From positions 2,437 through 34,436 of the forward strand of contig JANQHX010000021.1 in the NCBI GenBank assembly GCA_028282465.1: a DNA stretch of 32,000 nucleotides. The letters run 5' to 3'. Below the pieces are notes generated by a model. It searched no databases. It was not told the DNA's origin and saw only the letters and a program-made list of their open reading frames with translations. The translations under genes and the position numbers were made by a program. This stretch comes from Gynuella sp. (GTDB lineage Bacteria > Pseudomonadota > Gammaproteobacteria > Pseudomonadales > Natronospirillaceae). This document shows, piece after piece, positions 1 through 31,158 of this stretch (the first letter of the stretch is position 1; every line of letters starts with the position of its first letter).

Positions 1-12
1 AGTTAGTAGACA

Positions 13-447: not shown

Positions 448-780
448 GAATCTAATTTGCCTTTTAAATTTGAGTAAATTGTAACCTTAATCCCTAAGAT
501 TTTTCGAGACAGAAAGCTAATTCTGTCATTGCCTTCACCGGAATATTCTCGACCTAATATTCATAGGTTTAATGAAACTTGATCTAGGCCTTATGTAGTC
601 GTCAATTCTGTGCAAATAGCGATACATTCGCCTTGAAATCAATGGGTTAGCTTTATATAAACCTTGGGCTGGATACTGGGGTCGGAATCCAACAAGAATA
701 TATCAGATACCCAGAAAACCTTGTCTTTTCGCCCCCGTCACAATTTCTATCTGAAATAAAATCTATGGAGTAATCAAACC

Positions 781-2447: not shown

Positions 2448-2462
2448 TCGGAGGCCGCACAC

Positions 2463-4268: not shown

Positions 4269-4278
4269 GGAGGTAACC

Positions 4279-5337
4279 GTGAATTCAAAAAATGTTTATC
4301 TGCTAGCTGGCATTGTGGTGGTTTTTGCCATTATTGCTGTCGTCGTAAGTAACATGAATCGAGGAAAAATTGATTCAGAAATCGACAAAGCTGGTGTGTT
4401 AATGCCTGAGTTAACCGCTCAGGTGTCGAAACTAAATAGAATCATATTCACTGAAAAAATTGATGGCGAATTGGTGACTAACACCCTGGTAAAAGAAGAC
4501 GATCAATGGCTGGTCACCACAGCCTTTAATTACCCTGCCAGAGTTCAAATGTTAACTGAATTGATGAACACATTGGCGTTAGCAAAAACAGTGGAACCCA
4601 AAACCGCTAAGCCAGAGTTTTATTATCGACTAGAGGTTAATGAACCCGAAACCACAGAAGAAGATATATCTGGTACTCGCGTTCAAATGTTTGCGGATGA
4701 AGAGCTAGCCTTCGATTTGATTATTGGTAAAACCGTTCTTAACGGTAATGGCCAATATGTTCGCTTCACTCAAGAACCTCAAAGCTGGTTGATGGATCAA
4801 GAAATTAATATTTCAGCGGAAGCACTGGCTCTGCTCAATCGAGTCATAGGTAAAGTCAGATCTGTGGATGTGCAACGCATTGACATTAAGGCTGACGGAA
4901 CACCTATTGTTATAACGAGAAATGACGTCTCGGAAAGCTTCCAGGTTCAAGAGCTTGGCGAGGGGGTTGTTGAATTTCCCTCATTGTTGACTTCAGCCGC
5001 TAATGCACTCAATGATAAACAATACGATCAGGTCATGCCGGTGTCAGACGTTGAACTGCCCGAGTCGTTTTCTACAGTTAACTATCTATTGTTTTCCGGT
5101 GCGAATATTCAGGTGACTGGTTATAAAACTGAAGATGACAAACGTTTGATCACAATATCCGTCACCAACACCAAGCAACCCAGTGATGATGGTTTTGATG
5201 TAACTGCTGGTGAAGTTGCTCGACTAAATGCTCAATGGCAACCTTGGGTGTATGAAGTGAGCAGAACGGTTTTTGAAGAATTCGAAAAAAATCGGGATGA
5301 TTTTGTTAAAGAGCCAGAGACGGCAGAGACTGAATAG
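4279..5337 (+). CDS. DUF4340 domain-containing protein
   Basis: Start placed at GTG 4279 (in frame with listed ORF 4219..5337), preceded by a strong RBS aaggaggt; N-terminal TM; YRLEVNEPETTEEDISGTRVQMFADEELAFDLIIGKTVLNGNGQYVRF typical of DUF4340; same operon as the GldG-like gene. Confidence 0.85.
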   Translation: MNSKNVYLLAGIVVVFAIIAVVVSNMNRGKIDSEIDKAGVLMPELTAQVSKLNRIIFTEKIDGELVTNTLVKEDDQWLVTTAFNYPARVQMLTELMNTLALAKTVEPKTAKPEFYYRLEVNEPETTEEDISGTRVQMFADEELAFDLIIGKTVLNGNGQYVRFTQEPQSWLMDQEINISAEALALLNRVIGKVRSVDVQRIDIKADGTPIVITRNDVSESFQVQELGEGVVEFPSLLTSAANALNDKQYDQVMPVSDVELPESFSTVNYLLFSGANIQVTGYKTEDDKRLITISVTNTKQPSDDGFDVTAGEVARLNAQWQPWVYEVSRTVFEEFEKNRDDFVKEPETAETE

Positions 5338-14039: not shown

Positions 14040-15981
14040 GGTTACTATCCACTAATTGCTCTCCTAAATTTTGTATTCGCTCTAACACCCTGGTTGTTTT
14101 ATAAAATTCTGTCAGTTGAATGGCTGAAGTAATATCGGCTAAGTCTTCTAGCCATTCAATATCGGTAACCAGGGTTTCATTTGAAGTCATATATTCTTCA
14201 GACCTAAATAGCTCTAGCCATTCATGAAAAACTGGGTCTGGTAACTTTTTATGGCGCCATTCTTGTCGCCTAATAAAATCTCTTCTTGAACTTATGTCTG
14301 GCAGCATAAAACCACTTTGTAGCTCCCCCAGATCAACATTCGAAATAGTTTCTAAGTGGTCTTCATTAATGATTTGAACAGGAGCTTTATGCTTTTGAGT
14401 TTCAATAGCTTGATTTTTTAAATACAGGGCCTCGAATTGGTTTAAAGCTTCATCATCAGTAATAGGGTTAGATTTAATTTCATTACCGTGAAAGGCTGCA
14501 AGTGGGTCTATGCTGTAGCGGTTTCGTTTGGATTCACGGAGTAAGTTTTTAAACTGATGCCAAGCCAGTTGATATTCACTGACGGTTATTGGGCTGGTTG
14601 GATTCTGAGTGCCTTCCAAAGCCTCTTTATTACTTTTATCCACCTCTTCAACGATTGTCTGGGCCTCGAATCTATAACTCATTTTGCATTCAAACAACCA
14701 GTTGTATACCACTTCATTAGACCTGAGCAGGCGATATAAGCTGGAGAATTGCTGTTCTAAAATAGTAATTCTGGCTAGATGTTCTAAGTGCTGGTCATGC
14801 TGGTTAATAAATTCTTTGCCGCCTTCTAGGTTTTGAATGGTATCTCGCTTGAGTTGTATGGCTTCTGCGGCTCGAATAAGTTTTCTAGGTACAGGTGGAA
14901 TGGCTTGGTTAAATAAATTCAATAAGGGTAGATTTAATTTAGTTTCTGCATGTTTATCCTCTGGTTGTTCGTCTTGGCGATCATCTATTTGACTAGCTTT
15001 TTGGGCATCTTCTGCTTTTTCTTCAACTACAAAAAGGCTTGGGTAATGTTCAATTAAATAAGCTTGGGTTTGGTTTTGTGACCACCTAGGCAAATGAATA
15101 GGAATATGAACAATCTTTTCTAAATACTCTGCGCCGGTAATAGGTGGGCTGATATTGGAGTCTCGGTCTTTTTCTAAAAAGTAGTCTTTGTATCTATGGT
15201 TAATGCCTCGTTCAACCACTTCGTCGTCTACGGCTAGCACAAAGGCAAAATTATTAATATTTAAAAATAGTTTGATGGATTCAAGCATTTGTACTGCGTT
15301 ATCTGGCAGGCATCTGTCCAAGTCATCTACAAGTACAATAATTCTAATTTTGAGTTTATCGTCGTCAGGTGATTGGGTGAGTTGTTCAAGTGATTCAAAG
15401 GTACCGTAATACATGGACTCCATCTTTTTAGTCGCTTCATTTTTCTTAGCGTCAGAAGCTGCCGCTGATTCTAGGCTGTCTTTGCCACTGAATTTGATGA
15501 CACCAAAATCAAAACTCAAACCAGTTGCGACAGATCTCGTTAAATCAGCAATGGTTTCACCGGTTTTTATTAGCAAGGATTTAAGTTGGTCAGTAACAGC
15601 CCTTGTTAATGTCAAGGCATGGCTTTCGATCTTGCTTTGATACTTTTCTAACTGGTTTTCAATGGTTTTTAACAGAGGAATGATTAAAAAGTCTTCCTGC
15701 TCGTATTTCCAAGGGGAGAAAAACACAGGAATATTGATATGCTTTATCGAGTTGTCTTCAGTATTTGAGTCTTGCCAGATTAAATTTTCAGATTTGGAGT
15801 AGTGTTTTTCAATCTGTCTTAGGTGCCAGGTTTTACCTATGCCCCATTCACCATAAACAGACACCACCAATGCTTCACCACTGGCTTTGTGGGGAAAACT
15901 GGTATTAATAACATCACAAATGTTACTGACGATTTCGCTAGAAACATCACTGGAAACGTTAGCGGTATCCGAAACGGGCAT
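14032..15981 (-). CDS. KAP-family P-loop NTPase
   Basis: Walker A VVSVYGEWGIGKTWHL and KAP-type Walker B IRIIVLVDDLDRCLPDNAVQMLESIKLFLNINNFAFVLAVDDEVVERGI; EKIVHIPIHLP motif. The stop codon overlaps the downstream ATG (ATGGATAA). Confidence 0.93.
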   Translation of the reverse strand: MPVSDTANVSSDVSSEIVSNICDVINTSFPHKASGEALVVSVYGEWGIGKTWHLRQIEKHYSKSENLIWQDSNTEDNSIKHINIPVFFSPWKYEQEDFLIIPLLKTIENQLEKYQSKIESHALTLTRAVTDQLKSLLIKTGETIADLTRSVATGLSFDFGVIKFSGKDSLESAAASDAKKNEATKKMESMYYGTFESLEQLTQSPDDDKLKIRIIVLVDDLDRCLPDNAVQMLESIKLFLNINNFAFVLAVDDEVVERGINHRYKDYFLEKDRDSNISPPITGAEYLEKIVHIPIHLPRWSQNQTQAYLIEHYPSLFVVEEKAEDAQKASQIDDRQDEQPEDKHAETKLNLPLLNLFNQAIPPVPRKLIRAAEAIQLKRDTIQNLEGGKEFINQHDQHLEHLARITILEQQFSSLYRLLRSNEVVYNWLFECKMSYRFEAQTIVEEVDKSNKEALEGTQNPTSPITVSEYQLAWHQFKNLLRESKRNRYSIDPLAAFHGNEIKSNPITDDEALNQFEALYLKNQAIETQKHKAPVQIINEDHLETISNVDLGELQSGFMLPDISSRRDFIRRQEWRHKKLPDPVFHEWLELFRSEEYMTSNETLVTDIEWLEDLADITSAIQLTEFYKTTRVLERIQNLGEQLVDSNHG

Positions 15982-16195: not shown

Positions 16196-17542
16196 GTGTT
16201 CATGTTTGCCAAGGTAACCGCGTCTGCGCTCAATGTACGATCTGTGCCCAAGGCCTCAGGGAAAATTTTGGGTGTCCTTCACAAGGATCAAGTCATCCGC
16301 ATAGAAGGTGAGGAGGGCAGTTGGAGCCAATTAGCTTATATGGGTCAAACTGGATTTGTGGCAACAGAGTATTTGACGTTTGAATTTGAAACGGATCAAT
16401 TAATGGGCAAAGTGACTGCCTCTTCACTGAATGTCAGGCCCGACCCTTCAACCTCGAATGAGCCTATTACAAAACTGGATAATGGGGTAGAGGTGAGCGT
16501 TTTAAAGCAGGTGGAGGATTGGTACGAAATAGCACTGCCGGATTCCACAGGTTTTGTGTCAGCCAAGTTCATTGACGTCAGTATCCCTGACCAACCCAGC
16601 TTGATTTTGGTGAATGCTAGTAATTTAAATGTTCGTTCTGGGCCTTCAACTGACCATGAAATTATCGGTTCAGTTGACCAGGGCACTCAATTAATCAAAG
16701 TGTCAGACAATAATGATTGGATTGAAGTTCGGTTTAATGATGAACCTGGGTATGTGCATTCTGATTTTGTAAAACCATTTAGTGGCACTGCCAAGAAACC
16801 AAGGGCAAGACGTACCCGTCTAATCAATTCAACAAGCGCCTCATCGACTGACAGCGCATTGGAACCAGACACTCAGCTGTTAATTGAAGGGGACAAAACC
16901 CAGAAAAAGGTGGCTAGAACCTGGAATAGCTTTGGTGGCATTTTACAAAAGCTCAGTTCAGATTTTGGTTTTGAAGCTGCCAGCGCAATAGCTGTGCTTT
17001 GTGTTGAAAGTTCGGGTAAGGGTTTTCAAAAAAGTAATGACAACCGCATGATCATTCGTTTTGAAAACCACAAGTTTGACGGTTATTGGGGTGAACAGAA
17101 TTCAGAATTATTTGATCAGCATTTCAAATACAACAAGAAGGGTAAGAAATGGCTGGGTCATGAGTGGCGAGAAACTACCAACGATGAGTGGAGTCGCTTT
17201 CATGGCAAACAAAGAAAGGAATGGGAGGTGTTTAATTTCGCAAGACACTTAGACAGTGATGCGGCCATGATGTCTATTAGCATGGGAGCTCCCCAGATTA
17301 TGGGTTTTCATTATAAACGACTGAATTACTCATCAGTGGCTGAAATGTTCGATCAGTTTTCCACTGACATGGCGGCGCAAATTGAAGGATTGTTTCGTTT
17401 TCTGGATAAACGAATGATAAAGGCATTAGTGGAAAAAGACTTTGTGGAGTTTGCTCGCTGGTATAATGGTGCTGGACAAAAACAAAAATATGGCGGCTGG
17501 ATTATGGATCATTATCAGGCCTTTAAATCTTTAGCGAATTAA
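16196..17542 (+). CDS. Three SH3b domains + N-acetylmuramidase domain (PF11860-type)
   Basis: Three copies of the SH3b pattern (VTASALNVRSVPKAS...; VTASSLNVRPDPSTS...; VNASNLNVRSGPSTD...), then AIAVLCVESSGKGF...IIRFENHKFDGYWG...SISMGAPQIMG...FARWYNGAG. Start GTG 16196 or ATG 16202. Confidence 0.9.
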   Translation: MFMFAKVTASALNVRSVPKASGKILGVLHKDQVIRIEGEEGSWSQLAYMGQTGFVATEYLTFEFETDQLMGKVTASSLNVRPDPSTSNEPITKLDNGVEVSVLKQVEDWYEIALPDSTGFVSAKFIDVSIPDQPSLILVNASNLNVRSGPSTDHEIIGSVDQGTQLIKVSDNNDWIEVRFNDEPGYVHSDFVKPFSGTAKKPRARRTRLINSTSASSTDSALEPDTQLLIEGDKTQKKVARTWNSFGGILQKLSSDFGFEAASAIAVLCVESSGKGFQKSNDNRMIIRFENHKFDGYWGEQNSELFDQHFKYNKKGKKWLGHEWRETTNDEWSRFHGKQRKEWEVFNFARHLDSDAAMMSISMGAPQIMGFHYKRLNYSSVAEMFDQFSTDMAAQIEGLFRFLDKRMIKALVEKDFVEFARWYNGAGQKQKYGGWIMDHYQAFKSLAN

Positions 17543-19502: not shown

Positions 19503-20015
19503 TCAGGATTTGACAGCGAACATTTGTCCATCAGGTGCCACTGAAACCATCACCAGTTTTATATTTGATTCACTATTTGAGTCCCAGCCCAATAGCAAAG
19601 TATCGTCTTCACTTAATTGAATGTGCTCTTGATTATTTGGGCAGGGGATTACTAGTTTTGCAAATACCTGAACCATTCTTTCTGGTGATTCATTGTCTAC
19701 AACCAATAAATACTTCTGGCCATAGTGCACGCCTTGGCACACGGCGGCTTCGCCTTTAACAAGTGCAACCCCATTTATTTTAACCTGTGACTCAAACTGG
19801 TTAACTGAAGGTCTAATCCAGTTTTCTGTAATGGGTGCTGAAGCCGTTAAAATTGCGAGGGCGAGATTTCCATACATGTAATGTCGGATAGAAAAAAGTA
19901 CCGATGGTTTTGGAGACTTTTTCTGGGTTTCTTGACTTAGTAACTTAAAAGAAAGAAGTGATAATAAGAATACCAAGCCTGGTAATCCTAGTTTTAAGAT
20001 TTCGATAATATCCAT
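19503..20015 (-). CDS. Hypothetical protein with N-terminal TM segments
   Basis: ORF of 170 aa with hydrophobic segments LPGLVFLLSLLSFKLL and YGNLALAILTASAPI; no family recognised. Confidence 0.55.
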   Translation of the reverse strand: MDIIEILKLGLPGLVFLLSLLSFKLLSQETQKKSPKPSVLFSIRHYMYGNLALAILTASAPITENWIRPSVNQFESQVKINGVALVKGEAAVCQGVHYGQKYLLVVDNESPERMVQVFAKLVIPCPNNQEHIQLSEDDTLLLGWDSNSESNIKLVMVSVAPDGQMFAVKS

Positions 20016-20274: not shown

Positions 20275-20952
20275 TTAGTCTCGTCTTACTCGAATCAGTA
20301 TTCGTCGGTTCTGAGTTCTGCGTTCTTCAACAGGAATGGTTTCGTCTGTGACCTTGGGGCGCGAATCAGCATAGCCAGAAGCTTTCATTTGCATTGGGTC
20401 TAAGCCCTGTTCTTGAAAATACTTCACTATGTTTGTGGCGCGATTGGAACTGAGCTCCCAGTTGGAATCGTATTTCTCATTGTGAATGGGAACATCATCT
20501 GTATGACCTTCAATTTCGACAATGTAATAACCTTGAAGATTGTTCGAAACCACTTTCGCTACATCATTCAACAGAGGTAATGCCTGTGGTTGTATATCGG
20601 CACTGCCAGAATCGTAAAGCGGAAAGTTAGTAAACTCCAGTAATACGCCTTTGTCATCAATGGTGACATTTGCAAACTGTTCCAGATCTCGAGTTTCGAT
20701 AACGGATTGCCAACCCGCTTCGATATCTCGCAATGGAGTTTGAACCTTTGTGTTGCTGATGGCTTCAGCTAAGCCTTCTTTTAACGCTTCAATTTTGCCT
20801 TGATTTAAATCTGAGACGCTCATGATCATGACAAAAAAAGCAAGCAACAAAGTGATCACATCGGAATAGGTCACTAACCAACTGTCTTGCTCTCCTTCAC
20901 CCCCTAGCCTTGGCCGACGTCGCTCTGCTCCAGGCCGTGTGCGAAGATTCAT
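20275..20952 (-). CDS. MotB/OmpA-family stator-like protein
   Basis: DSWLVTYSDVITLLLAFFVMIMSVSDLNQGK (MotB TM with proton/ion-coupling Asp) and OmpA-like peptidoglycan-binding motif EGHTDDVPI...NWELSSNRATNIVKYFQEQGL...QNRRILIRV. Confidence 0.93.
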   Translation of the reverse strand: MNLRTRPGAERRRPRLGGEGEQDSWLVTYSDVITLLLAFFVMIMSVSDLNQGKIEALKEGLAEAISNTKVQTPLRDIEAGWQSVIETRDLEQFANVTIDDKGVLLEFTNFPLYDSGSADIQPQALPLLNDVAKVVSNNLQGYYIVEIEGHTDDVPIHNEKYDSNWELSSNRATNIVKYFQEQGLDPMQMKASGYADSRPKVTDETIPVEERRTQNRRILIRVRRD

Positions 20953-21750
20953 TTAAGATTGCTCGCTTGCCATGTCGTAGTAGGCTTTGGGGTTAATTAA
21001 TGCGTTAAGTCGGTCTTGTATGGTGAGGGCGTCGGCCTTTTCCATCATGAATACAAACCCGTCACACCAGAGTTGATGCCGTAAATATTCCCCTTCCATT
21101 TTTTTAAAAATATGAACGGCGGCAGGTCTGAAAATCAACTGAGCCAGCATGACGCCATAGAGAGTGGTGATTAAGGCCAACGCAAGACCTTTGCCTAAGG
21201 CAGTTATGTCCCCATCCATGTTATCTAACATGATGATTAAGCCGATGATAGTACCAACCATACCAAAGGCCGGTGAGTAACTAGCCATGGTGTGTAACAC
21301 TTTTGCCGATTGAGTTCTTCGAGAAAAATCCGCTTCAATGCGGTTAGATATTAAATAGCGAATCTCTTTAGAATCATAGCCCGCAGTTATTTGTTCTAAA
21401 CAATAAGTTAGAAACTCGTTCTTTTTTTCTTTGTTGGTAAGGGAATTTGAAACCGCTGTGAGACCTTGTTGTCGATAGATTTGGCTCCATTCAATAAAAC
21501 GTTTGATGTCTGACCTCAGGGTGCTGTGGTTGTCGCGCTCTTCACTGAAAGTTCGAAAAAGAGCAAAAATAGCGGTGACAAACTCCTTCATGTTGTAACT
21601 AATAATGGTCGCCGCTGCTGTTCCACCCAACACCATAGCAACACTGGTGGGGCTAATAAAAATAATGAAGTTATCGGTATTCGAGGTGATCGCATAAAAG
21701 AATAATGCGATGGCACCTATGATGCCGATGAGTGTGCTAATAAATGTCAT
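20953..21750 (-). CDS. MotA/PomA-family stator-like protein
   Basis: FISTLIGIIGAIALFF; VLHTMASYSPAFGMVGTIIGLIIMLDNM; ALALITTLYGVMLAQLIFRPAA. Confidence 0.93.
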   Translation of the reverse strand: MTFISTLIGIIGAIALFFYAITSNTDNFIIFISPTSVAMVLGGTAAATIISYNMKEFVTAIFALFRTFSEERDNHSTLRSDIKRFIEWSQIYRQQGLTAVSNSLTNKEKKNEFLTYCLEQITAGYDSKEIRYLISNRIEADFSRRTQSAKVLHTMASYSPAFGMVGTIIGLIIMLDNMDGDITALGKGLALALITTLYGVMLAQLIFRPAAVHIFKKMEGEYLRHQLWCDGFVFMMEKADALTIQDRLNALINPKAYYDMASEQS

Positions 21751-23687
21751 TCAATGGTTGCCAAATCTTGCATACTGAATTTACCGGTTTTTATTAATTC
21801 ACGAATATGGTGAACAATGGTACGACGAGATTGCTCAACGAGGTTATCGTCCGGTTGAGAGTCTGTGTATTGAAGTTGATCTTGTACCGCAGCTCGTACC
21901 TTTGAAGGCAGTGCTTCTAGAATATATTTCACTAACTGCGGGTTGGCATTTGCGAGCGCCGAGGTCAATTGCTTTCTGTCTACTTCCCGAAGAATTTCAC
22001 CTAGAATTTCAGGTGGTGTTCTGCCTAGATCATTAAAGGTGTAGTAAACCTGTCGTAAGCGATAATAGGTTTCTGGTGAGTCCTGCTTAATTCGGTCTAG
22101 CAACTGATGCTCGTCAGAAGAGGGTAAGTTGTCGAGCATATCAATCAACAGAGCGGTGCCATCGGTATTGAGGTTTTCAAAGCTAGGCACGTTTAAAGAT
22201 TTTTTGGCAAGTCTGTCTGCGACATCTCTAAACGTGGCAATGGGAAATTCATTAAATTGTCCAATTTCGTAAGCAATTTGGCCCTGCTGTGCCGGTGCTA
22301 AATGTTTTAGCAAAGCCGCAGCCCGTGTGGCAGAGACTTGAGACAGTACCAAGGCTTTGATTCTGGGTTCTTCATCTTGCAGAAGGTAAACAATTTGGCC
22401 ATCAGCCAGTCGATCTAAAAATTTAAATGGCTTAGAAGGATGATGCTCCGGAAAGGATGCCTGATCTCGTAGTAATACATGCCTTAGTGCGGTTAACTCG
22501 GAGTGAACTTCATCTGGTGTTAATTGGTTTTGTTCCAGAAATTGAGTGATCTCATAAATCTGTCCAGTGCTGATGGACGGGAATAAGCCTCTGAACAGAG
22601 AGCCCCCTAGAGTCTGGTAGGCGGATGCTAGGGTTTTTAAATAGTTACCACCCAATAGTAAATCTTCAACCCGTCCACTGGCCCGTTCTGGATTACCAAG
22701 GCCAGCGGTAATAATTTCTTGTTTTAGAGATCGGATGTCGGCAACCACTGGTGCTTCAGAGGTTTCGTTGCTGATAGCACTAGGTACGCTAATGGGCGCC
22801 TGGTTTACTGTTGAGTCTGGCGGTAGTGTATATTTAGGCTTTCTAAAAATGAGGATCAGCAACAGTAAAAAAATAGACGCCGCAAAAGCCAGTGCAACCC
22901 AAGGTACCCAAGTTTGCTGCCACCAGTTTAACTCTTCGCTAGTACTATTGGGGTCCAGCGCTTCCGGCATTCTGGTGTCTGGTTCGCTGTTCAATTCATC
23001 AGAAATGGATTCAAAAGGCGTTTTTACCAGAACAAGGCGGTCACCACGAAAGTAATTCAGTTTCAGCTTACTCTCTAAAAGTGTTCTGACAAATTCTTCC
23101 TGAGAGAGACTAATGGTTTCGTCAATTAATATGGTTACCACCAGGTTTTCTATTCTGGAGAAAATGTCCTGACTAGTTTCCAGTATTTCTTCAACGGGCT
23201 CGCCGCTGTCTTCAAAATTAACAAGACTTTCCCGCATGGATTTTAAACTTTCCAGTACCGGTGAATCCGTGGGTGCTGGTACTTCAACGGATGCATCTTC
23301 ACCAAAGGGTAATCCTGGTAGTTGAATGCTTTCTGGCGTGGAGGATTGTTGTTGTTCCAGCGTCTTTTGTTCTAGTTCCTCGATAAGAGCATTGAGGTTT
23401 TGTAATTTTTGTTCTTGAGCTGGGCTTAAAATATAGTCAGGTGCCGCTTTTGGAATGGTACCTCGCAACCGTTGAATACGGGCATCAATATTGATGATGA
23501 AACGATCATTACCCAAGTAGGCTCGAAGGTCTCTGGTAATTCGGTTTTCCATCTGCCCGATGAATTCCATTTCTGTCATCACGTCTTGTTCAGCAGAAAT
23601 GAACTCGTCAACACTCCAAGCTTTGGCGCTTAGCAAAACCAACAAACTGACGCTGACCCATAAAAAGTATTTGTTCATGTTCATCAT
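21747..23687 (-). CDS. Membrane-anchored FliG-like protein (signal peptide, extracytoplasmic region, TM, FliG M/C-like cytoplasmic region)
   Basis: N-terminal signal sequence (NKYFLWVSVSLLVLLSAKAWS), TM (WVPWVALAFAASIFLLLLILIF), then FliG-like DEEPRIKALVLSQVSATRAAALLKHL and TPPEILGEILREVDRKQLTSALANANPQLVKYILEALPSKVRAAVQDQL...VEQSRRTIVHHIRELIKTG. Confidence 0.82.
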   Translation of the reverse strand: MMNMNKYFLWVSVSLLVLLSAKAWSVDEFISAEQDVMTEMEFIGQMENRITRDLRAYLGNDRFIINIDARIQRLRGTIPKAAPDYILSPAQEQKLQNLNALIEELEQKTLEQQQSSTPESIQLPGLPFGEDASVEVPAPTDSPVLESLKSMRESLVNFEDSGEPVEEILETSQDIFSRIENLVVTILIDETISLSQEEFVRTLLESKLKLNYFRGDRLVLVKTPFESISDELNSEPDTRMPEALDPNSTSEELNWWQQTWVPWVALAFAASIFLLLLILIFRKPKYTLPPDSTVNQAPISVPSAISNETSEAPVVADIRSLKQEIITAGLGNPERASGRVEDLLLGGNYLKTLASAYQTLGGSLFRGLFPSISTGQIYEITQFLEQNQLTPDEVHSELTALRHVLLRDQASFPEHHPSKPFKFLDRLADGQIVYLLQDEEPRIKALVLSQVSATRAAALLKHLAPAQQGQIAYEIGQFNEFPIATFRDVADRLAKKSLNVPSFENLNTDGTALLIDMLDNLPSSDEHQLLDRIKQDSPETYYRLRQVYYTFNDLGRTPPEILGEILREVDRKQLTSALANANPQLVKYILEALPSKVRAAVQDQLQYTDSQPDDNLVEQSRRTIVHHIRELIKTGKFSMQDLATIE

Positions 23688-24443
23688 TTAGTTAAATAGA
23701 ACTTCCAGACCCTTTCGAACATCTTCCATGTTGGGATCAATTTCTAATGCTTGTTCCCAAGCCGTTTTGGCTTCTTCTCTGCGGCCCATTTTGTAATAAA
23801 TACTGCCCTTTAAGGCATAGGCCAGTGCAAATTCAGGCTGTTGATTGATTGCCTGTAATGTCGCGTTCAATGCACCTAGATAGTCTCGCCGGTAAAACAG
23901 TTGTTGTGCCAATACAATACTGTCGTTAGCAGTCATTCCTGACGATGGCGTCGGGTTTAATGTTGTCTCGGTAATGCCATCTGCATTGGTTGTTTCATCA
24001 ATAGGTAACTCGCGATTACTTGAATTTGGTTGTTCATTCTCTCCCATATCCATGGACTTCAGTTTTTCTGCAACTGCACCTAATGGATCATCAGTCTCTT
24101 CCGATTCAGGTAAGTCCATAACAAAGGCAACGTTTTCTTCGCCAGTATCTAGAATTAAGGAGATGTTATAACCCGGACCATGACGGTCTATGGTGATGAC
24201 TCCGAAGTCATCCTTGCCTCTCTGGTTGAGCTGGGTGGGTTCAATTGGCGAATTCGCTTGTAGAATTTGCGATTCTGTGGGGCTAGTTAATTCAGTGTTT
24301 GCGCTGCTATCGCTAATGGTGACGTCTTCGGTTTTAGACGTTTGTTCAGAAGCCGATGTGCCGTTGTTTTGTCCAAACATGGAACAGGCTGATATCAAAA
24401 ACATGGATGTCATTGTCAGCAAAAAAGGAGTCAGTCTTCTCAT
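23688..24443 (-). CDS. TPR-containing lipoprotein
   Basis: Start chosen at ATG 24443 (not 24524): MRRLTPFLLTMTSMFLISAC lipobox. C-terminal TPRs (LAQQLFYRRDYLGALNATLQAINQQPEFALAYALKGSIYYKMGRREEAKTAWEQALEIDPNMEDVRKGLEVL). ATG overlaps the upstream stop (TAATG). Confidence 0.85.
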   Translation of the reverse strand: MRRLTPFLLTMTSMFLISACSMFGQNNGTSASEQTSKTEDVTISDSSANTELTSPTESQILQANSPIEPTQLNQRGKDDFGVITIDRHGPGYNISLILDTGEENVAFVMDLPESEETDDPLGAVAEKLKSMDMGENEQPNSSNRELPIDETTNADGITETTLNPTPSSGMTANDSIVLAQQLFYRRDYLGALNATLQAINQQPEFALAYALKGSIYYKMGRREEAKTAWEQALEIDPNMEDVRKGLEVLFN

Positions 24444-25543
24444 TAGAATCGATACCCCAAAGTAATGTCGTAACTTGCCCCGCCAAATTCTGAAGATTCT
24501 TCTAGGCCATCTACTTCTTTCCATTCCACTTCTTGTTCAGGTAAATAAATAACACCTAAATCAATGTAGCCGTTTCTTGTAAAAGGAAATTCGATTCCGT
24601 ATTTGTAGACGAGAGATTGTTGTTCTTTAAAAAATGCCTGGCCCAGTTCCAAATACATGAGTGTTGGCACCCATTGCTCCAACGCGGATATATTAACTTC
24701 CACTCGGCCTTCAATAACAAAGCCCAGCATGTCGAAATAATCTGTTTGGGCAAGATTTGAAAAAGTTTCGAAACCAAGACCATAACTAATGTCTTCGTTG
24801 AGTTCTGAATGCTCTCTGCGTCTAATACCGAATGTGGTCACGCTTGATAATTGACGGTCAGAAACGCCAGTGCCTTCTCGTTCTGCACTGAATCCCCATG
24901 CTCCTACAAATAATTCCCAGTCGACTCGGTCAAACTCTTCTTCATTCAGTTCTTCGTCCCGTTTAGCTAATTCGATTGGGTTTGTTTTTCTAGCGTATTG
25001 CCGAGTCCAAACAACATGGTTATCTGTGGCATCAACCAGTCTCATGTCGACAGTAAATTTTTCTTCATACACATTTGCGCTCCACATAAAAAACCCATCC
25101 ACTTGAAGCTTTCTGGCTAGGTTGCGCATGTCTTTGTTACTTTCTATCGCTTGATTAATACTGAGTTGATCGTTTTGAAGTTTTACTTGAATCAATTTGC
25201 ATTCAACACACTCGGTGACCAAAAACTTTTCGGTATCAATCAACTTTTTAATGATCATGCCTTCGATCATGGTTTCTGTTGACTTAGGTATTTTTTTATA
25301 AAGTCTGTCTTCTGTGTGATACAAGGCTACTCGCATCACAGGTATTTCCAAATCCGCAAGCTCTTGCACAGGTAGTGTGTTTTCATCTTCCATGAGTTCT
25401 GCAAACCCGTTGTAGTAACGAGCCTGTGTTTCCACCAAATTACTGGTCTGCCCAGTTTCAGCCTGAACATAGTTCAAAGTAGAAAATAAAATTGTTACCC
25501 ATGTGGCAAAAAATTGCCGCTCGAGACTGGCTTCAGCCTGCAT
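24443..25543 (-). CDS. Predicted secreted/outer-membrane beta-barrel protein, function unknown
   Basis: N-terminal signal-like segment (FATWVTILFSTLNYVQA); alternating strands in the C-terminal half ending in an aromatic residue (GGASYDITLGYRF); N-terminal half with LARKLQVDGFFMWSANVYEEKFTVDMRLVDATDNHVVWTRQY. Confidence 0.65.
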   Translation of the reverse strand: MQAEASLERQFFATWVTILFSTLNYVQAETGQTSNLVETQARYYNGFAELMEDENTLPVQELADLEIPVMRVALYHTEDRLYKKIPKSTETMIEGMIIKKLIDTEKFLVTECVECKLIQVKLQNDQLSINQAIESNKDMRNLARKLQVDGFFMWSANVYEEKFTVDMRLVDATDNHVVWTRQYARKTNPIELAKRDEELNEEEFDRVDWELFVGAWGFSAEREGTGVSDRQLSSVTTFGIRRREHSELNEDISYGLGFETFSNLAQTDYFDMLGFVIEGRVEVNISALEQWVPTLMYLELGQAFFKEQQSLVYKYGIEFPFTRNGYIDLGVIYLPEQEVEWKEVDGLEESSEFGGASYDITLGYRF

Positions 25544-25699: not shown

Positions 25700-26488
25700 A
25701 TGCAGATATTACCTAAAAACTCTGTCTACCGATCTTTAGGGCAGCACCCCTTGATATTGTTGGATAGACCAGAGCATCAAAAACATGACGCCTATGTGTT
25801 TCTTGTTGATAACATCTCCAGAGCCTTGGAAAACCATCCCGTGATCAATGGAGATGCGCTCCCTAAATGGCTGAGTGACGAAAATTCCACCGGGCAACAG
25901 GTGGAGTACTTGATTTTGCAAATGGTCATCTTCTTCAACTTACTTTATTTGTCTGAGAAAACGGGCCGTAAAGCAGAATCGGATAAGTTGTTTATGGATT
26001 TGGCGCACCTGACCTCTGTTCCTGAAAGTCATAACCTATCTGTGTTGAGAGGCTTTTTTCAGTTTGTTCATGAATACGTGAGGTCGTTAAGAATTCCCTT
26101 TGGCCCACTATTAAGGTCAGTGCCTGTGGATCCAATTACGGATTTTGTGAGTTCAGAACTGACTCATCGGCTGTTAAATGGTGCCCCAAGTAGCAGATTG
26201 GCATCGCGCTTTGCACTAGAGAGTTGGTTGGTTTCAGGTTTTTGGGATGAGTTAGCTTCGTCTTTAATGGCTTATAAAAATCAGCTTGATCTGAATTTAA
26301 TGCCGATTAGCTATTTTTCTAGCCCAACTGGCTCTTTTACCCCACCTTGTATCCCACTGGTAGCCGAGATTTACTTTCAATGTGGCATTCATGAAGATCG
26401 GTTTTTGGCGGATGTGGTGTCGACATTGGATTGCATTGATGATTTTTGGAGTTCAATAGGGCGAAAGACACTTTATGCACAGAAATGA
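25700..26488 (+). CDS. Hypothetical protein
   Basis: 262-aa ORF divergent from the motor-like operon; no family recognised. Confidence 0.6.
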   Translation: MQILPKNSVYRSLGQHPLILLDRPEHQKHDAYVFLVDNISRALENHPVINGDALPKWLSDENSTGQQVEYLILQMVIFFNLLYLSEKTGRKAESDKLFMDLAHLTSVPESHNLSVLRGFFQFVHEYVRSLRIPFGPLLRSVPVDPITDFVSSELTHRLLNGAPSSRLASRFALESWLVSGFWDELASSLMAYKNQLDLNLMPISYFSSPTGSFTPPCIPLVAEIYFQCGIHEDRFLADVVSTLDCIDDFWSSIGRKTLYAQK

Positions 26489-27105: not shown

Positions 27106-28683
27106 CTATAATTCCCAGATTCCTCCTTGGTTGGTGCAGGCTGTGGATAATCTATTTTGTGCTTCATTAATGGTTTCATTATTTGGCCGCAACGGGTTCT
27201 GATAATGGAAAATTCTGGTTTCTGTGATGTCCTGGGTGCAGGTTCCTATAAAAGTACCGGTTTCATTTGTGTCCTCATTTATCATCTGCCAGCTATTTCG
27301 ACATCTAGCCTCTAGCCACTCCAAATCATCTTGTGTTTCTCCTAACAGTAAGTTTTCTCGACCATCGCATTCACCGGGTGGAATCGAAAGTGCCCCTCCA
27401 TCCATGGTTTCGATACAGATATTCAAAGAATTTTGATCAAACAAGGAAACCACAGGTTGGCAGCTACCCGCTGCGCCATAAGTGGCTGGAACGGCTGTGT
27501 CGTCGCCTCTTCTTATGATGATTTCTCTGCCCCCTTGACCAATAAGCCCGTTAATATCCGTTGCTTGTACCACTACAAACCAGGTGCCTACGGCAGTGAG
27601 GGTAAAGGTTTGATTAGTTAATCCAGCTAATTCAAGTGCTTCCCGAGTCCAGGTTTGAATAACACCGTTAGGAGAGATGAGTTGTGCTGTCCATCCGGTG
27701 ATTTCCAAACTTTCTTGATGGCTGGCTGAAATGGCAATAGAAACATTTGACGGGGATTGAAACTGGTTGATCACTGGGGTTTCTGTCACGGTAACGTTCA
27801 CTGAGATAATTGGAGTTGCGGGTTGCAATGTGTCTAGTACTAGCGTGGCTAATACCGCTTCGGCTTCTAGGGCGTCTATGGTGTTGGTAGTAAGTGAACC
27901 TAAAAAATTGTCTTGATCACTGGTCGCGAGTTCAGCCATGGAAAAACTCGCGACTTCTACGCCATTCACATCCGTAACACTGATCAGTCCGGTATTCGTG
28001 TCAATGCTGAAATCAAGAAGCTCTATCATGCCATCAGTGTTAATAGGATTTTCTGATGGGTTGGCATCATATTCTTCGGTGAAGGGGTTTATCGGGTTTC
28101 CGGATGTATCAACCGGCCAAAGACTTCCCAGTGCTGCCGATAAATTATTAATGGCTGGTGCGACAGCGCTGTGATCATAACCTGTTTGCAAAGCGCTTAA
28201 ACAAGTGGCAGTAACAAAACAGGTTTCTGGGGTGGTGGAATACTCGCTGTTGAGATAAGCCCGAGTGATCAGGTCTGTCACTTCATTAATATTACTGCTT
28301 GAAGTGGTTGCGCCAGTTTCTGAACTAAACAGTGAATAGTAAGTGGTTTGCAATCCATCGGGAGCAATAAATTCACCCCTGACTAAGCCGCTGGTGACGG
28401 GGTTGTTCATGAGGTTGTATTCGCCTTGGGCATTGGCGGTTATACAATATTCAGTGGTGCCATCAGACGTGCAGACATCTGCAAATGCAGCGGCTTGTCC
28501 ATAAGCGACGACGCCAGAGAGAGTTACAGAATCAGTCACCTGATTAGTGTCATCGCCATCTGTACCTGGAGCACTGCTTCCGCCACCACCTCCTGAGCTA
28601 CAAGCAGACGTGCTTAAAATGATTAAAGACAAAACCAGCAGATGAAGAAAAGACGTCGGTTCAATGTGTCTGTTTGTAAACAT
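27106..28683 (-). CDS. Hypothetical lipoprotein
   Basis: Lipobox-type signal peptide (LLVLSLIILSTSACSSGGGGGSS); no other family recognised. Confidence 0.75.
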   Translation of the reverse strand: MFTNRHIEPTSFLHLLVLSLIILSTSACSSGGGGGSSAPGTDGDDTNQVTDSVTLSGVVAYGQAAAFADVCTSDGTTEYCITANAQGEYNLMNNPVTSGLVRGEFIAPDGLQTTYYSLFSSETGATTSSSNINEVTDLITRAYLNSEYSTTPETCFVTATCLSALQTGYDHSAVAPAINNLSAALGSLWPVDTSGNPINPFTEEYDANPSENPINTDGMIELLDFSIDTNTGLISVTDVNGVEVASFSMAELATSDQDNFLGSLTTNTIDALEAEAVLATLVLDTLQPATPIISVNVTVTETPVINQFQSPSNVSIAISASHQESLEITGWTAQLISPNGVIQTWTREALELAGLTNQTFTLTAVGTWFVVVQATDINGLIGQGGREIIIRRGDDTAVPATYGAAGSCQPVVSLFDQNSLNICIETMDGGALSIPPGECDGRENLLLGETQDDLEWLEARCRNSWQMINEDTNETGTFIGTCTQDITETRIFHYQNPLRPNNETINEAQNRLSTACTNQGGIWEL

Positions 28684-28891
28684 AGTTATTCACAGTCTGA
28701 TCATTCAGGATAAATAACTACTTCAACCCTCATGCCAGTGTGTAATATTGTATGATTCTCTGGGTAATATTTATAAGTATTTGTTTTATATGGATATTTT
28801 TAGCCAAAATTGGTTTATTCAGGGTCTGTAAAATAGGTCAAATTCATGACGGAGCGCAAAAATACCGTCATTTTCCCCAGACTTATTCACA

Positions 28892-28942
28892 GGATCATTC
28901 ATGAAATTCATTTTTGATCCAGTTCGAATTTCAATGAATTTC
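28892..28942. promoter_or_regulatory. Overlapping inverted repeats upstream of the 29036 gene
   Basis: GGATCA(28892-28897)/TGATCC(28915-28920) and GAAATTCATT(28903-28912)/AATGAATTTC(28933-28942), both perfect. Confidence 0.45.
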
Positions 28943-29035
28943 TCTTAAAACAGTGGTTAAGAGCCCACTTTTGAAATACTTTCTTTGCCATACTGGAATG
29001 GTCTAACACCTTTGCCTAACTAGAGGACGGCCCGA

Positions 29036-30511
29036 ATGGAAGGTCAATTTTTTAATTGGATGCAAGCGAATCCCACAGTGTTTTTTGGAACATTGTTACT
29101 GGTGATGTTGGCTTTGTATTTCTCGAAAAATGGTTTCTACGCAGCTTTTAGGAAGATAGCTTTGCTGCTGTCTGCCAGTTTAAGGCTGCAGTCTAGAGCA
29201 CTCATCACAATGACAGAGCAAATGAAGCAGCGTAACCGTGAAGTGTTATTGGAAATGGGACAGGCTCAAAAAGAACGAGATATTGAGCGTGAGTTTTACA
29301 GGGTAAATGCCATTGTGGATAGAGATTTAAGTGGCTACCCAGAATTACAAAAAGTCATATCAGAACACATCACCGCCATCGAAGAAGATTATCAAAAAAC
29401 TGGTGAATCACCGCCTCCTTCACCAGATTGGGTAGAAGCTGTGGAGGCGGTCGCCAACTTGAAAGAAGCTCATAAGGGCAATCCGGTGATCGCTAAAATA
29501 TTATCTGACTTGCATGAGTCGGTTATTGGTCAGCACAAACAGGCCTTGGGTGATTATCGGGAAGGCATAGCACAACGACATAGGCTGTTGCACTCCATGA
29601 TGCCCCATTGGCGCAAACTGAATAACGCAGTCGGTAGTGTTGGTAACAGTATTAAAGGTTTGTTGAAACACTCAGCAAAACTTGATGTTCATATGGATCA
29701 GTATGAACAAATACGACAGGGTTCTGAACAAGCTGAAAGGGCGTTACGTTCCTCTGCCAGTATAGATTTTCTATTTTCTGTACTGATTATTTTGTTAGCT
29801 ACCTGGGGCGCATTCTTCAACTTTCAGTTAATAGCTTTGCCTATGTCAGAAATGGTTGGAGGTACGTCGAGTAAATTTAATTTATTTGGACAAGTGGTTT
29901 CAGTTGCTCAGGTTGCTGGTGCATTTATTGTCATTCTGGAAGTGATATTAGGGGTTTTCCTAATGGAATGTTTGCACATTACTCGAATGTTTCCTGCACT
30001 TTCGAGCCTGGATGATCGCATTCGAAAAAGAATGATTTGGGCGCTGTTTATTTTCATGTTCTTCCTGGCGAGTATTGAGTCGGGTTTGGCATTTATGAGA
30101 GATCAAATCGCTGCTGCAGACGAAGCGTTAAAATTTTCACTTGGCTTGGGTGGTGAAGCGCCTGTGGCCAGCGACATCAGTCAAACCATTCCGTTAGCTG
30201 CAGCCATGATGCTGGGTTTCATGTTGCCATTTGCTTTAATGTTTGTAGCGATACCTATTGAAACTTTGTTTTTAACAGGAAGGGTCGTACTGTCGTCGAT
30301 ACTTGTTCAAGTATTACATCTGGCAGCGATACTGTTACGTTTGCTTGCCAATGCTATTAAAAATCTCGTGGAGTTCATTATTGCCGTTTATGACATTTTC
30401 ATATTTATTCCTTTATGGATAGAAGGGGCTGTGAAGTCTTTTCGGGAAGACTCAGCTAGACGCTCCGAAACATCATCGGTTTCTGAATCCAGTACAGAAT
30501 TGAGGCCATAA
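29036..30511 (+). CDS. Multi-pass membrane protein of unknown function with a cytosolic coiled-coil-like region
   Basis: N-terminal TM, ~200 aa soluble Glu/Lys/Gln-rich region, then about five TM segments (FLFSVLIILLATWGAFF; GAFIVILEVILGVFL; MIWALFIFMFFLASI; IPLAAAMMLGFMLPFALMFVAIPIETLF...). Confidence 0.75.
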   Translation: MEGQFFNWMQANPTVFFGTLLLVMLALYFSKNGFYAAFRKIALLLSASLRLQSRALITMTEQMKQRNREVLLEMGQAQKERDIEREFYRVNAIVDRDLSGYPELQKVISEHITAIEEDYQKTGESPPPSPDWVEAVEAVANLKEAHKGNPVIAKILSDLHESVIGQHKQALGDYREGIAQRHRLLHSMMPHWRKLNNAVGSVGNSIKGLLKHSAKLDVHMDQYEQIRQGSEQAERALRSSASIDFLFSVLIILLATWGAFFNFQLIALPMSEMVGGTSSKFNLFGQVVSVAQVAGAFIVILEVILGVFLMECLHITRMFPALSSLDDRIRKRMIWALFIFMFFLASIESGLAFMRDQIAAADEALKFSLGLGGEAPVASDISQTIPLAAAMMLGFMLPFALMFVAIPIETLFLTGRVVLSSILVQVLHLAAILLRLLANAIKNLVEFIIAVYDIFIFIPLWIEGAVKSFREDSARRSETSSVSESSTELRP

Positions 30512-30513
30512 AA

Positions 30514-31158
30514 ATGAGAAAGGGATTTTTAATCAGCTTACTATTTTTATTAAGTGCTTGTGCCAGTAATGAAAACTACAGTACAGCTGTTTACTTATTG
30601 TTGGATACTTCAGGCACCTATACTAAAGAACTTAGAAAAGCCCAAAACATTATCAATTATTATTTGGCAACTTTGGAAGCCGGCGACAGTTTTGCGGTTG
30701 CTCGAATCGACAGTGGCAGTTTTAGTGAGCGGGATATAATTGCCAAGGTTAAGTTTGATGACAAGCCTTCAAAGTCTAATGTTCAGAAGCGAGAGTTTGC
30801 CGAAATAATAGATAACTTTGTGTCAACCGTTGAAAGCGCATCCTATACCGATATTTCTGGGGGTTTGCTTCAAGCGCAAGAATACATCACTGAAACTGGG
30901 GCAGGGTATAAGCACATTTTAATTTATTCTGATTTGAAAGAAGAATTGCCTGACGGATTCAATCGAGATTTTGATCTTGAGCTGGATGGCTTTACGGTCA
31001 CTGCGTTAAACGTAACAAAGCTCAGAACAGATAATGTTGATCCGACTGAATACAAATCTAGATTGCTGTATTGGCAAGATCGCATCGAAAAAGCGGGGGG
31101 CTCCTGGCGTATGTTAAACGACCTCGAACGGGATGATGCGTTAGAGCTACCTAAGTAA
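30514..31158 (+). CDS. VWA-like (MIDAS-containing) lipoprotein
   Basis: Lipobox LLSAC; MIDAS-like motifs VYLLLDTSGT, SYTDISGGL, ILIYSDLKEE; starts 2 nt after the preceding stop. Confidence 0.75.
   Translation: MRKGFLISLLFLLSACASNENYSTAVYLLLDTSGTYTKELRKAQNIINYYLATLEAGDSFAVARIDSGSFSERDIIAKVKFDDKPSKSNVQKREFAEIIDNFVSTVESASYTDISGGLLQAQEYITETGAGYKHILIYSDLKEELPDGFNRDFDLELDGFTVTALNVTKLRTDNVDPTEYKSRLLYWQDRIEKAGGSWRMLNDLERDDALELPK

Follow-up and report, generated by a model that had tools for sequence, protein, structure and literature searches.

A natural FliF-FliG fusion encoded with its own MotAB stators and outer-membrane partners in marine bacteria: a candidate rotary machine of the cell envelope

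A run of five genes on the minus strand of a 32,000-nucleotide stretch of DNA from Gynuella sp. (GenBank assembly GCA_028282465.1, contig JANQHX010000021.1, positions 2,437 to 34,436; hereafter ‘the window’, meaning that whole stretch) encodes an outer-membrane protein, a tetratricopeptide repeat (TPR) lipoprotein, a 646-residue membrane protein, and a pair of MotA- and MotB-type stator proteins. Profile and fold comparisons identify the 646-residue protein as a natural fusion of the flagellar proteins FliF (from its RBM3 domain to its second transmembrane helix, TM2) and FliG, in effect a whole rotor subunit in a single chain. Taken together, the five genes probably specify an autonomous rotary machine that is powered by ion flux, descends from the flagellar motor and has neither the switch nor the filament of a flagellum. 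More tentatively, the module may represent a previously unrecognised class of rotary nanomachine, in which a FliF/FliG ring is spun by its own stators and the torque is used inside the envelope.

The genes had been singled out by a first-pass annotation of the window, which described them as a candidate stand-alone motor spanning the envelope. All five open reading frames (ORFs) lie where that annotation placed them, and an independent gene caller returned identical calls on the same contig (Table 1). Their junctions are as tight as had been described: the TAA stop of gene 1 overlaps the ATG start of gene 2 within the sequence TAATG at 24443; gaps of 0 nucleotides (nt) separate genes 2 and 3 (at 23687/23688) and genes 4 and 5 (at 20952/20953); and genes 3 and 4 share a 4-nt ATGA overlap at 21747-21750.

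The fused rotor subunit, its stators and its partners

The rotor protein comprises a signal peptide, a periplasmic domain of approximately 230 residues, one transmembrane (TM) helix and a cytoplasmic FliG region of approximately 335 residues. The last of these contains both FliG_M (PF14841; E 2.7e-15, 56.8 bits against a gathering score of 25) and FliG_C (PF01706; E 2.1e-20, 73.5 bits against a gathering score of 23.3), while the protein as a whole falls below the cutoff for a FliG ‘equivalog’ (70.8 bits against 226.7 for TIGR00207). A profile built from 16 members of the rotor family matched FliG in the PDB (3hjl, E 1e-24) and also Salmonella FliF (6scn_A), and Foldseek aligned the helical region of an AlphaFold2 (AF2) model over full-length FliG (8umx_B, 326 of 328 columns). 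The similarity to FliG, which the first-pass annotation had itself named as a possible point of failure, therefore survives hidden Markov model (HMM), PDB-profile and fold comparison.

The claim of an anchored FliG-like protein with an extracytoplasmic region is likewise confirmed, and its extracytoplasmic part can now be sharpened to a FliF RBM3-type ring-building domain. When a profile restricted to the first 300 residues of 17 family members was searched against the PDB, a single significant match was obtained, to residues 234-497 of Salmonella FliF (E 3e-9); that match runs through RBM3 (both of its halves) and on to the FWQQ motif and TM2, with which the WWQQ sequence and the following TM helix of the Gynuella protein align. 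PF08345 (YscJ_FliF_C) is matched over its whole length by 15 of the 17 family members (best E 7e-10), relatives having given E 5e-9 in a separate search, and Foldseek matches the periplasmic part of the model to FliF RBM3 rings with a probability of 1.0. In the model this domain has the order alpha(32-58), beta(63-76), an insert of approximately 95 residues, beta(174-189), alpha(194-208), beta(217-223), after which come the TM helix and an all-helical region. The insert, which occupies the position of the FliF beta-collar, is predicted to contain helices and carries an invariant LPGLP (residues 123-127). Both RBM1/RBM2 and the N-terminal TM1 of FliF are absent from the protein, the alignment beginning at FliF residue 234 and the periplasmic part extending to only some 230 residues.

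Rotor orthologues at 31-74% identity share approximately 100 invariant columns, and the module proteins display family-specific invariant motifs (RIKALVLSQ, SLNVPSFEN and LPGLP). In public annotation they appear as ‘hypothetical’ or as ‘FliG C-terminal domain-containing’ proteins. Another unusual natural flagellar fusion was encountered during the searches, in the form of a 556-residue metagenome protein (P0017) that joins a FliH domain to a FliG complete with its N, M and C domains.

The two genes at 20275-21750 had been read as MotA and MotB stators, and the channel domain, plug, channel aspartate and OmpA domain expected of such proteins were all found by HMM search and alignment. MotA (265 residues, four TM helices and no Zorya-type tail) matches PF01618 (MotA_ExbB) with an E-value of 9e-23. 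Its best NCBIfam model is PomA (E 1.5e-41, 142 bits against a 341-bit cutoff), its PDB matches include Clostridium sporogenes MotA (4e-31) and Vibrio alginolyticus PomA (2e-28), and its leading matches in both collections are the flagellar proteins PomA, MotP and MotA, below every flagellar equivalog cut-off. Residue R93 corresponds to R88 of PomA and R90 of E. coli, and the channel proline and threonine residues are conserved. A Tol/Ton-type motor was considered and rejected, because the TolQ and ExbB scores are negligible beside those for PomA and MotA (TolQ, E 1.7e-4 and 21 bits against a 221-bit cutoff; ExbB, 14-18 bits) and no TonB or TolA domain is found in the module. MotB contains a plug (MotB_plug, PF13677; E 2e-15) and an OmpA domain (PF00691; E 1e-18), and its Asp31 is aligned to the channel aspartate of the C. 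sporogenes and Bacillus subtilis MotB proteins; its best equivalog, MotD, again scores below cutoff (161 bits against 283).

The positions at which stator and rotor would meet were compared across 25 modules for MotA, and across 24 alignable sequences for the rotor. In MotA the R90-equivalent (PomA R88) and the channel prolines and threonines are invariant, and the E98-equivalent (PomA E96) is a glutamate in 22 of 25; threonines equivalent to PomA T158, T185 and T186 are also invariant, but C. sporogenes MotA carries them too. In the torque helix of the rotor, the R281-equivalent is lysine or arginine in all 24 sequences (K596 in the window) and the D289-equivalent is glutamate or aspartate in 23 (D603/Q604 of the window corresponding to D288/D289), while the equivalents of K264 and R297 are not conserved. 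The window module itself has serine (S101) in place of PomA E96 and glutamine at Q604; the glutamate of 22 of 25 family members is gone and both sites are altered, which may represent a coupled change at the interface or a relaxed constraint in this clade. Elsewhere in the FliG region the FliM-binding EHPQR motif has been remodelled (the glutamate is kept, the histidine has become aspartate, glutamate or proline, and the changes of glutamine to arginine and of R160 to glutamate are invariant), which fits the absence of FliM and FliN from the module.

The remaining two proteins were expected to reside at the outer membrane. For the product of gene 1 the predicted barrel was upheld: the AF2 model (predicted local distance difference test, pLDDT, 76.8) exceeds 90 in the barrel, which Foldseek matches to the NspA/Ail/OmpX/OmpA barrels (E 6e-7), while the preceding periplasmic domain resembles LpoB-C, TolB-N, GNA1162 and PelC. 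The FlgO family (PF17680) is matched at E <= 0.1 by 26 of 29 members of this protein family (best 1.2e-4), all of them under the gathering score of 22.6 bits (the window protein scores 16.1). A CxxC motif (C112 and C115) in the periplasmic domain is invariant in those 29 proteins and may form a disulfide or bind a metal. The product of gene 2, as had been proposed, has the marks of a lipoprotein with TPRs, in that a lipobox (LISAC, with Cys20 and a serine at +2) is followed by a long low-complexity linker rich in Ser, Thr, Glu and Asn and by two C-terminal TPRs (TPR_2, 1e-9; TPR_1, 6e-8). The corresponding protein of Aliivibrio fischeri ES114 (locus L027, 7378-7920; 180 residues) has a plain signal peptide and no lipobox cysteine, and lipidation of the TPR component is therefore not universal.

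Table 1. Genes and protein features of the module, in window coordinates
Feature	Nucleotides	Residues	Strand	Basis
Gene 1: outer-membrane protein (366 residues)	24443-25543		-	ORF list
Signal peptide, ending VQA			-	by eye
Periplasmic FlgO/LpoB/CsgG-like alpha/beta domain	24944-25426	~40-200	-	model, Foldseek
C-terminal 8-stranded beta-barrel, ending GYRF	24446-24928	206-366	-	model, Foldseek
Gene 2: TPR lipoprotein (251 residues, from the ATG within TAATG)	23688-24443		-	ORF list, gene caller
Two C-terminal TPRs	~23709-23936		-	HMM
Gene 3: FliF-FliG fusion, probable rotor subunit (646 residues)	21747-23687		-	ORF list, HMM, profile, fold
Signal peptide, cleavage between AKA and W		1-23	-	cleavage site by eye; hydropathy
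FliF RBM3-like ring-building domain	23013-23594	~32-225	-	profile, PF08345, Foldseek
Single TM helix	22833-22916	258-285	-	hydropathy; alignment to FliF
FliG-like cytoplasmic region	21750-22751	313-646	-	Pfam, PDB profile, Foldseek
FliG_M		431-500	-	Pfam
FliG_C		532-638	-	Pfam
Torque helix	21867-21908	594-607	-	residue mapping
Gene 4: MotA/PomA-type stator A subunit (265 residues)	20953-21750		-	ORF list, HMM
Gene 5: MotB-type stator B subunit (225 residues)	20275-20952		-	ORF list, HMM
MotB TM helix		24-51	-	alignment
MotB channel Asp31 (TYSDV)	20860-20862	31	-	alignment
MotB OmpA-like peptidoglycan-binding domain		113-211	-	Pfam

Conservation of the module and its separation from swimming

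A word-indexed search returned 16 full-length relatives of the rotor, an exhaustive HMM search (E <= 1e-30) returned 166 rotor clusters at 50% identity, mostly of 550-700 residues, and a scan of species-representative genomes returned 23 loci. Carriers of the module include Oleispira, Thalassolituus (among them T. maritimus DSM 24913), Oceanobacter, Bermanella, Bacterioplanoides, Marinicellulosiphila megalodicopiae, a metagenome-assembled genome of the Pseudomonadales, A. fischeri ES114 and A. logei. A comparison of gene neighbourhoods, of the general kind that the first-pass annotation had recommended, bore out the grouping, the five genes being colinear in 26 of 26 loci other than the window itself, from at least eight genera (identity 25-58%; tblastn E 1e-6 to 1e-146). 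This arrangement holds across the split between Oceanospirillales and Vibrionaceae, and the association of the five genes is far beyond chance. Flanking genes differ between clades and are mostly of the housekeeping kind. Among the 26 loci no other gene of the window is co-conserved with the module, nor is any export-gate, rod, hook or FliM/FliN gene. Two ORFs adjacent to the window module, one of 170 residues downstream (19503-20015) and a divergent one of 262 residues (25700-26488), were rejected as further members, since neither is conserved near the module in any other locus.

These observations bear directly on the notion that the module is what is left, in decay and devoid of current function, of a second flagellar system such as a lateral one. 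The flagellar derivation of its components would suit such a history, as would the failure to find a phenotype in Vibrio fischeri (PMC3948606), but intact ORFs, tight translational coupling, a rotor conserved across 166 clusters and synteny across genera make it very improbable, and the three invariant motifs point to selection for a new function. Neither a dN/dS near 1 nor frequent pseudogenisation came to light among these loci, a shorter ORF call in L021 being the one exception, and the idea of a pseudogene remnant was discarded as contradicted by this conservation.

Eight more distant members of the rotor family (L028 and L030 to L036) were also sampled. The full five-gene layout recurs in L032, and L036 has the order MotA-MotB-rotor, so that linkage to MotAB is found in two distant lineages and in two gene orders. 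Of the others, L033 retains the outer-membrane protein, TPR and rotor genes without MotAB; L028, L031 and L034 have a TPR gene (probable in L031, by a blastp match only) and the rotor, again without MotAB; L035 has the same pair on a contig that ends nearby; and in L030 a KAP NTPase is encoded after the rotor. Six of the eight have a TPR or probable TPR gene next to the rotor, so that the TPR protein is the most constant partner. At the position of the outer-membrane protein, L032 has a 409-residue protein to which the family profile aligns colinearly but weakly (hhalign E 0.02, probability 2%); a 217-residue neighbour in L028 is unrelated. L034 also contains a separate 451-residue FliF-like gene (884-2239; a faint match to PF08345), flanked by two TPR genes and lying beside the FliG-like gene, which hints at two-ring variants.

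The most informative carrier is A. fischeri (also published as V. fischeri) ES114, in which the module lies on chromosome II and the stators are 38-39% identical to the window MotA and MotB. By chromosome, by approximate position and by the presence of only two motAB pairs in this strain (PMC3948606), these are very probably the published motA2 and motB2 genes (VF_A0186 and VF_A0187). Insertions in either gene leave soft-agar motility normal, mutants of motA1 or motB1 lose motility completely, and FlrA does not activate motA2B2, which lies outside the flagellar regulon (Brennan et al. 2013, PMC3948606). The motA2B2 pair responds when RscS is overexpressed. The same organism carries a complete ordinary set of flagellar genes (PMC3948606), and monopolar flagella make M. 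megalodicopiae motile (PMC11966569). The module is thus found in marine bacteria together with a swimming flagellum, from which it is very probably genetically separate. In the literature searched no mention was found of the rotor, TPR and outer-membrane genes upstream of motA2B2 (VF_A0183 to VF_A0185 by position). An OmpR-type response regulator and a sensor kinase are encoded directly upstream of the module in ES114 (L027).

Alternative stators have precedents in MotCD of Pseudomonas and in the MotAB that accompanies PomAB in Shewanella, and the module might accordingly supply accessory flagellar parts, with its MotAB serving the polar flagellum and the fusion inserting into, or nucleating, a variant basal body under particular conditions (on surfaces, at high viscosity or at low Na+). 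All of its recognisable domains are flagellar, its MotA groups with flagellar PomA, MotP and MotA models rather than with TolQ or ExbB, its cultured carriers are flagellated, and in one biofilm model motA2 and motB2 were downregulated along with certain flagellar genes (PMC10804989). Against these points stand the V. fischeri genetics, from which it follows that MotA2B2 cannot substitute for the principal stators and is dispensable for swimming, and features of the module itself: it always brings its own rotor, RBM1 and RBM2 (which in FliF surround the export gate) are missing, the FliM-binding motif is altered, and all of the proteins score far under flagellar equivalog cut-offs. An accessory flagellar role consequently appears unlikely. 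The narrower idea, that these are the cell's ordinary or alternative flagellar stators (the first of which the first-pass annotation had listed among the possible refutations of its proposal), is contradicted by the genetic and regulon data (PMC3948606); they are very probably not the ordinary ones.

As had been noted at the outset, a Pfam search of the remainder of the window, in which four ORFs are without any match, gave no fli or flg genes, nor were FliM, FliN, export-gate, rod or hook genes found, and no tRNA or Rfam elements are present in it. The closest named homologues of a flanking ABC ATPase come from Pseudomonadaceae, at an identity of only 62-64%, and the host is an uncultured gammaproteobacterium of Pseudomonadales/Oceanospirillales type. 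Between 19300 and 26600, promoter-like sites number 8 against 14.1 expected, and terminator-like sites 10 against 6.1 +/- 2.6, neither figure being informative. The neighbours of the module in the window include an ABC-2/GldG-like transporter, an LRR protein, a CHASE2 cyclase, a pair formed by a WD40 protein and a KAP-NTPase, an SH3-muramidase, an SDR, a PfkB kinase, HolC and several proteins without a family match. The transporter is a GldAFG-like cluster of four plus-strand genes (781-5337) encoding an ABC ATPase, an ABC-2 permease, a GldG-like auxiliary protein (PF09822 and DUF7088) and a DUF4340 protein. A 448-residue peptidoglycan hydrolase, in which three bacterial SH3 domains are fused to an N-acetylmuramidase (PF11860), is encoded on the plus strand some 3 kb from the module (16196-17542) and is not co-conserved with it. 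Three ORFs without Pfam matches (27106-31158; 525 residues with a lipoprotein-like N-terminus, 491 and 214 residues) are not conserved beside the module elsewhere.

The WD40/KAP pair occupies 11100-15981 on the minus strand, its genes (for a 979-residue WD40-repeat protein and a 649-residue KAP-family P-loop NTPase) overlapping by 8 nt. The GC content of the WD40 gene (53-55%, against approximately 40% in the flanks) suggests that the pair was horizontally acquired and may be defence-related, and the NTPase matches the PADLOC models QatA, PifA and PDC-S20. It lies approximately 4 kb from the module; that the distant rotor of L030 is also followed by a KAP NTPase may be coincidence. Such matches could be taken to favour a Zorya-type anti-phage system, in which a MotAB-like motor senses perturbation of the envelope and signals to an effector, the more so in view of a match of MotB to ZorB models (E 3e-22) and a weak one of MotA to ZorA2 (E 2e-4). 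The former match, however, is generic MotB homology and the latter is confined to the TM region of a 265-residue MotA that has no ZorA tail; no nuclease or helicase resembling ZorC, ZorD or ZorE is present, the three module-specific proteins have no PADLOC match, the flanks are mostly housekeeping genes rather than defence islands, and co-conservation with the KAP gene is not observed. A defence role was rejected as highly improbable, the similarity returned by PADLOC being generic for MotB and weak for MotA.

A proposed machine and its significance

In FliF, the 33/34-mer S-ring is built by RBM3, and for that reason the fusion protein probably forms a ring in the inner membrane that carries a FliG torque ring. 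In the mechanism proposed here, some tens of copies would assemble through RBM3, with the torque ring on the cytoplasmic face. Co-encoded, PomAB-like MotA5B2 units would anchor to peptidoglycan through the OmpA domain of MotB and then unplug, after which a flux of H+ or Na+ through Asp31 would drive the stators to push on the FliG torque helix and turn the ring. Because the FliM site is remodelled and FliM and FliN are missing from the module, such a rotor would operate without a flagellar-type switch complex; because there is no RBM1/RBM2, export gate or rod, its output would not be a filament. More speculatively, the RBM3 insert, with its LPGLP motif and its helical or coiled-coil character, may act as the periplasmic output or contact element, and the TPR protein and the FlgO-like barrel protein may form a partner or scaffold on the outer-membrane side.

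Several points weigh against this proposal. A ring without an axle has no obvious mechanical output, and no mutant phenotype is known for the module. Envelope spanning, assembly, rotation and contact between inner- and outer-membrane components are each argued from homology. The window rotor protein by itself gave no match to PF08345, not reaching E 0.1, and the FliF assignment rests on family profiles, relatives and fold, since the periplasmic domain of the window protein has no Pfam match of its own. The AF2 monomer model is of moderate quality (pLDDT 65.7; predicted template-modelling score, pTM, 0.31), with low confidence in the RBM3 insert. The window stator and rotor have each lost one charge at their interface (at MotA S101 and rotor Q604). 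Finally, six of the eight distant family members have no adjacent MotAB, and the ring may act independently of stators in some lineages.

Some of these points could be accommodated if the proteins do not rotate at all. The anchored FliG domain might dock to or regulate MotAB, gating its ion flux (as an ion leak, or in the sensing of Na+ or H+) or pulling in the manner of Tol and Ton, with the RBM domain serving solely for oligomerisation or periplasmic interaction; the lack of an axle or bearing, the many distant members with a TPR partner and no adjacent MotAB, and the two canonical charges missing from the window interface would then be unsurprising, and the FliG fold is shared with the N domain of MgtE, a non-rotary regulator. 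A non-rotating arrangement is harder to reconcile with the conservation of charge pairs on torque helix and MotA across the family, with homology to exactly the segment of FliF that forms the 33/34-mer ring, and with a plug and peptidoglycan-binding domain in MotB of the type found in stators arranged around a rotor. A non-rotating use is therefore regarded as rather improbable, and the rotary machine is retained as the preferred interpretation.

With regard to function, a process at the envelope or surface, such as work on the outer membrane, behaviour associated with surfaces or biofilm formation, is favoured over swimming or defence. The earlier suggestion of a distinct ion-driven machine is thus supported, while its defence option is disfavoured by the PADLOC results, and surface motility and envelope work are indistinguishable here. 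No annotated or published system that matches the module was found, nor was any published description of it in the literature searched, which covered subscription journals incompletely.

To our knowledge every use of a FliG rotor is in a flagellum, and the known non-flagellar MotAB-type motors (Tol, Ton, Agl, Gld/Por and Zorya) use other partners. If the proposal is correct, the module would be the first non-flagellar machine to employ a FliG rotor; it might also be regarded as a model of the flagellar motor reduced to a minimum, or as a version of that motor that is either derived or ancestral-like. It would define a minimal natural rotor-stator unit, a motor of two to three proteins suited to structural and single-molecule work, and would show that cells put rotation in the envelope to a new use. 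Because rotor and stator occur here without a type III export apparatus, it also bears on the origin or reduction of the flagellar motor. The 166 clusters, some without linked stators, suggest an unexplored group of membrane-anchored FliG proteins, and the module is present in the genetically tractable A. fischeri ES114, for which mutants in motA2 and motB2 have already been made.

Comparison with known systems

The closest known system is the rotor-stator core of the flagellum, with which the module shares the FliF segment from RBM3 to TM2, the charges of the FliG torque helix, a PomA-type MotA, a MotB with plug, channel aspartate and OmpA domain, and presumably the mechanism of torque generation. 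The differences are considerable. Flagellar FliG is soluble and uses FliG_N to bind the C-terminus of FliF, whereas in the module it is joined covalently to the TM helix and FliF-like domain, so that FliF and FliG are one polypeptide; TM1 is replaced by what appears to be a cleavable signal peptide, RBM1 and RBM2 are missing, and the helical LPGLP insert replaces the beta-collar. The module has no export gate, rod, hook, filament, FliM/FliN or FliE, has outer-membrane partners of its own, and is neither needed for swimming in V. fischeri nor part of the flagellar regulon (PMC3948606). It falls outside flagellar systems on account of its sub-cutoff equivalog scores, its lack of RBM1/RBM2 and of export and axial genes, its altered FliM site and its dispensability for swimming. 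The V. fischeri proteins MotA2 and MotB2 (very probably orthologous stators of the module) have been described so far only as non-essential paralogues of the flagellar stators (PMC3948606).

Fusions of FliF to FliG have been met before. Engineered or spontaneous fusions in Salmonella and Vibrio alginolyticus assemble rings resembling the MS-ring (PMC6079021, PMC10941966, PMC11481574), and a fused rotor subunit is therefore structurally viable; those fusions are laboratory constructs with full-length FliF, at work within a complete flagellum, whereas that of the module is natural, truncated to RBM3, and accompanied by stators and outer-membrane proteins. In the Chlamydiaceae, a FliF-FliG fusion of approximately 330 residues has two TM helices, an RBM2-like domain and one unassigned RBM, and FliG_M only; it is found without MotAB and has been proposed to interact with the injectisome (Bergeron 2016, PMC4768692). 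Like the module protein it is natural, combines a shortened FliF with a FliG-like cytoplasmic domain and occurs in a non-flagellar context, and it is the only natural precedent found in the literature searched; by its published description it is set apart from the 646-residue protein, which is RBM3-like and has both FliG_M and FliG_C. The first-pass annotation had remarked that, among the systems with MotAB/TolQR-type stators known to it, none has a FliG-like domain fused to a TM anchor as a component; no system matching the module was found.

Other 5:2 ion-driven motors (ZorAB, TolQR-TolA, ExbBD-TonB, AglRQS-Glt and GldLM/PorLM) resemble the module in having a dedicated non-flagellar partner and in being mostly coupled to outer-membrane components, yet none of them uses a ring of FliG/FliF type, and the module in turn has a PomA-like stator and is without a ZorA tail, a TonB/TolA- or GldM-like shaft, or an effector. 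On the outer-membrane side, the Vibrio H-ring proteins FlgO, FlgP and FlgT offer a further parallel: weak but consistent matches to FlgO are given by the periplasmic domain of the gene 1 product, which has an LpoB/CsgG/PelC-type fold and occurs in an outer-membrane-associated, flagellum-related setting. It differs from FlgO in scoring under the gathering threshold and in its family-specific barrel fusion and invariant CxxC, and no homologues of FlgP or FlgT were detected.

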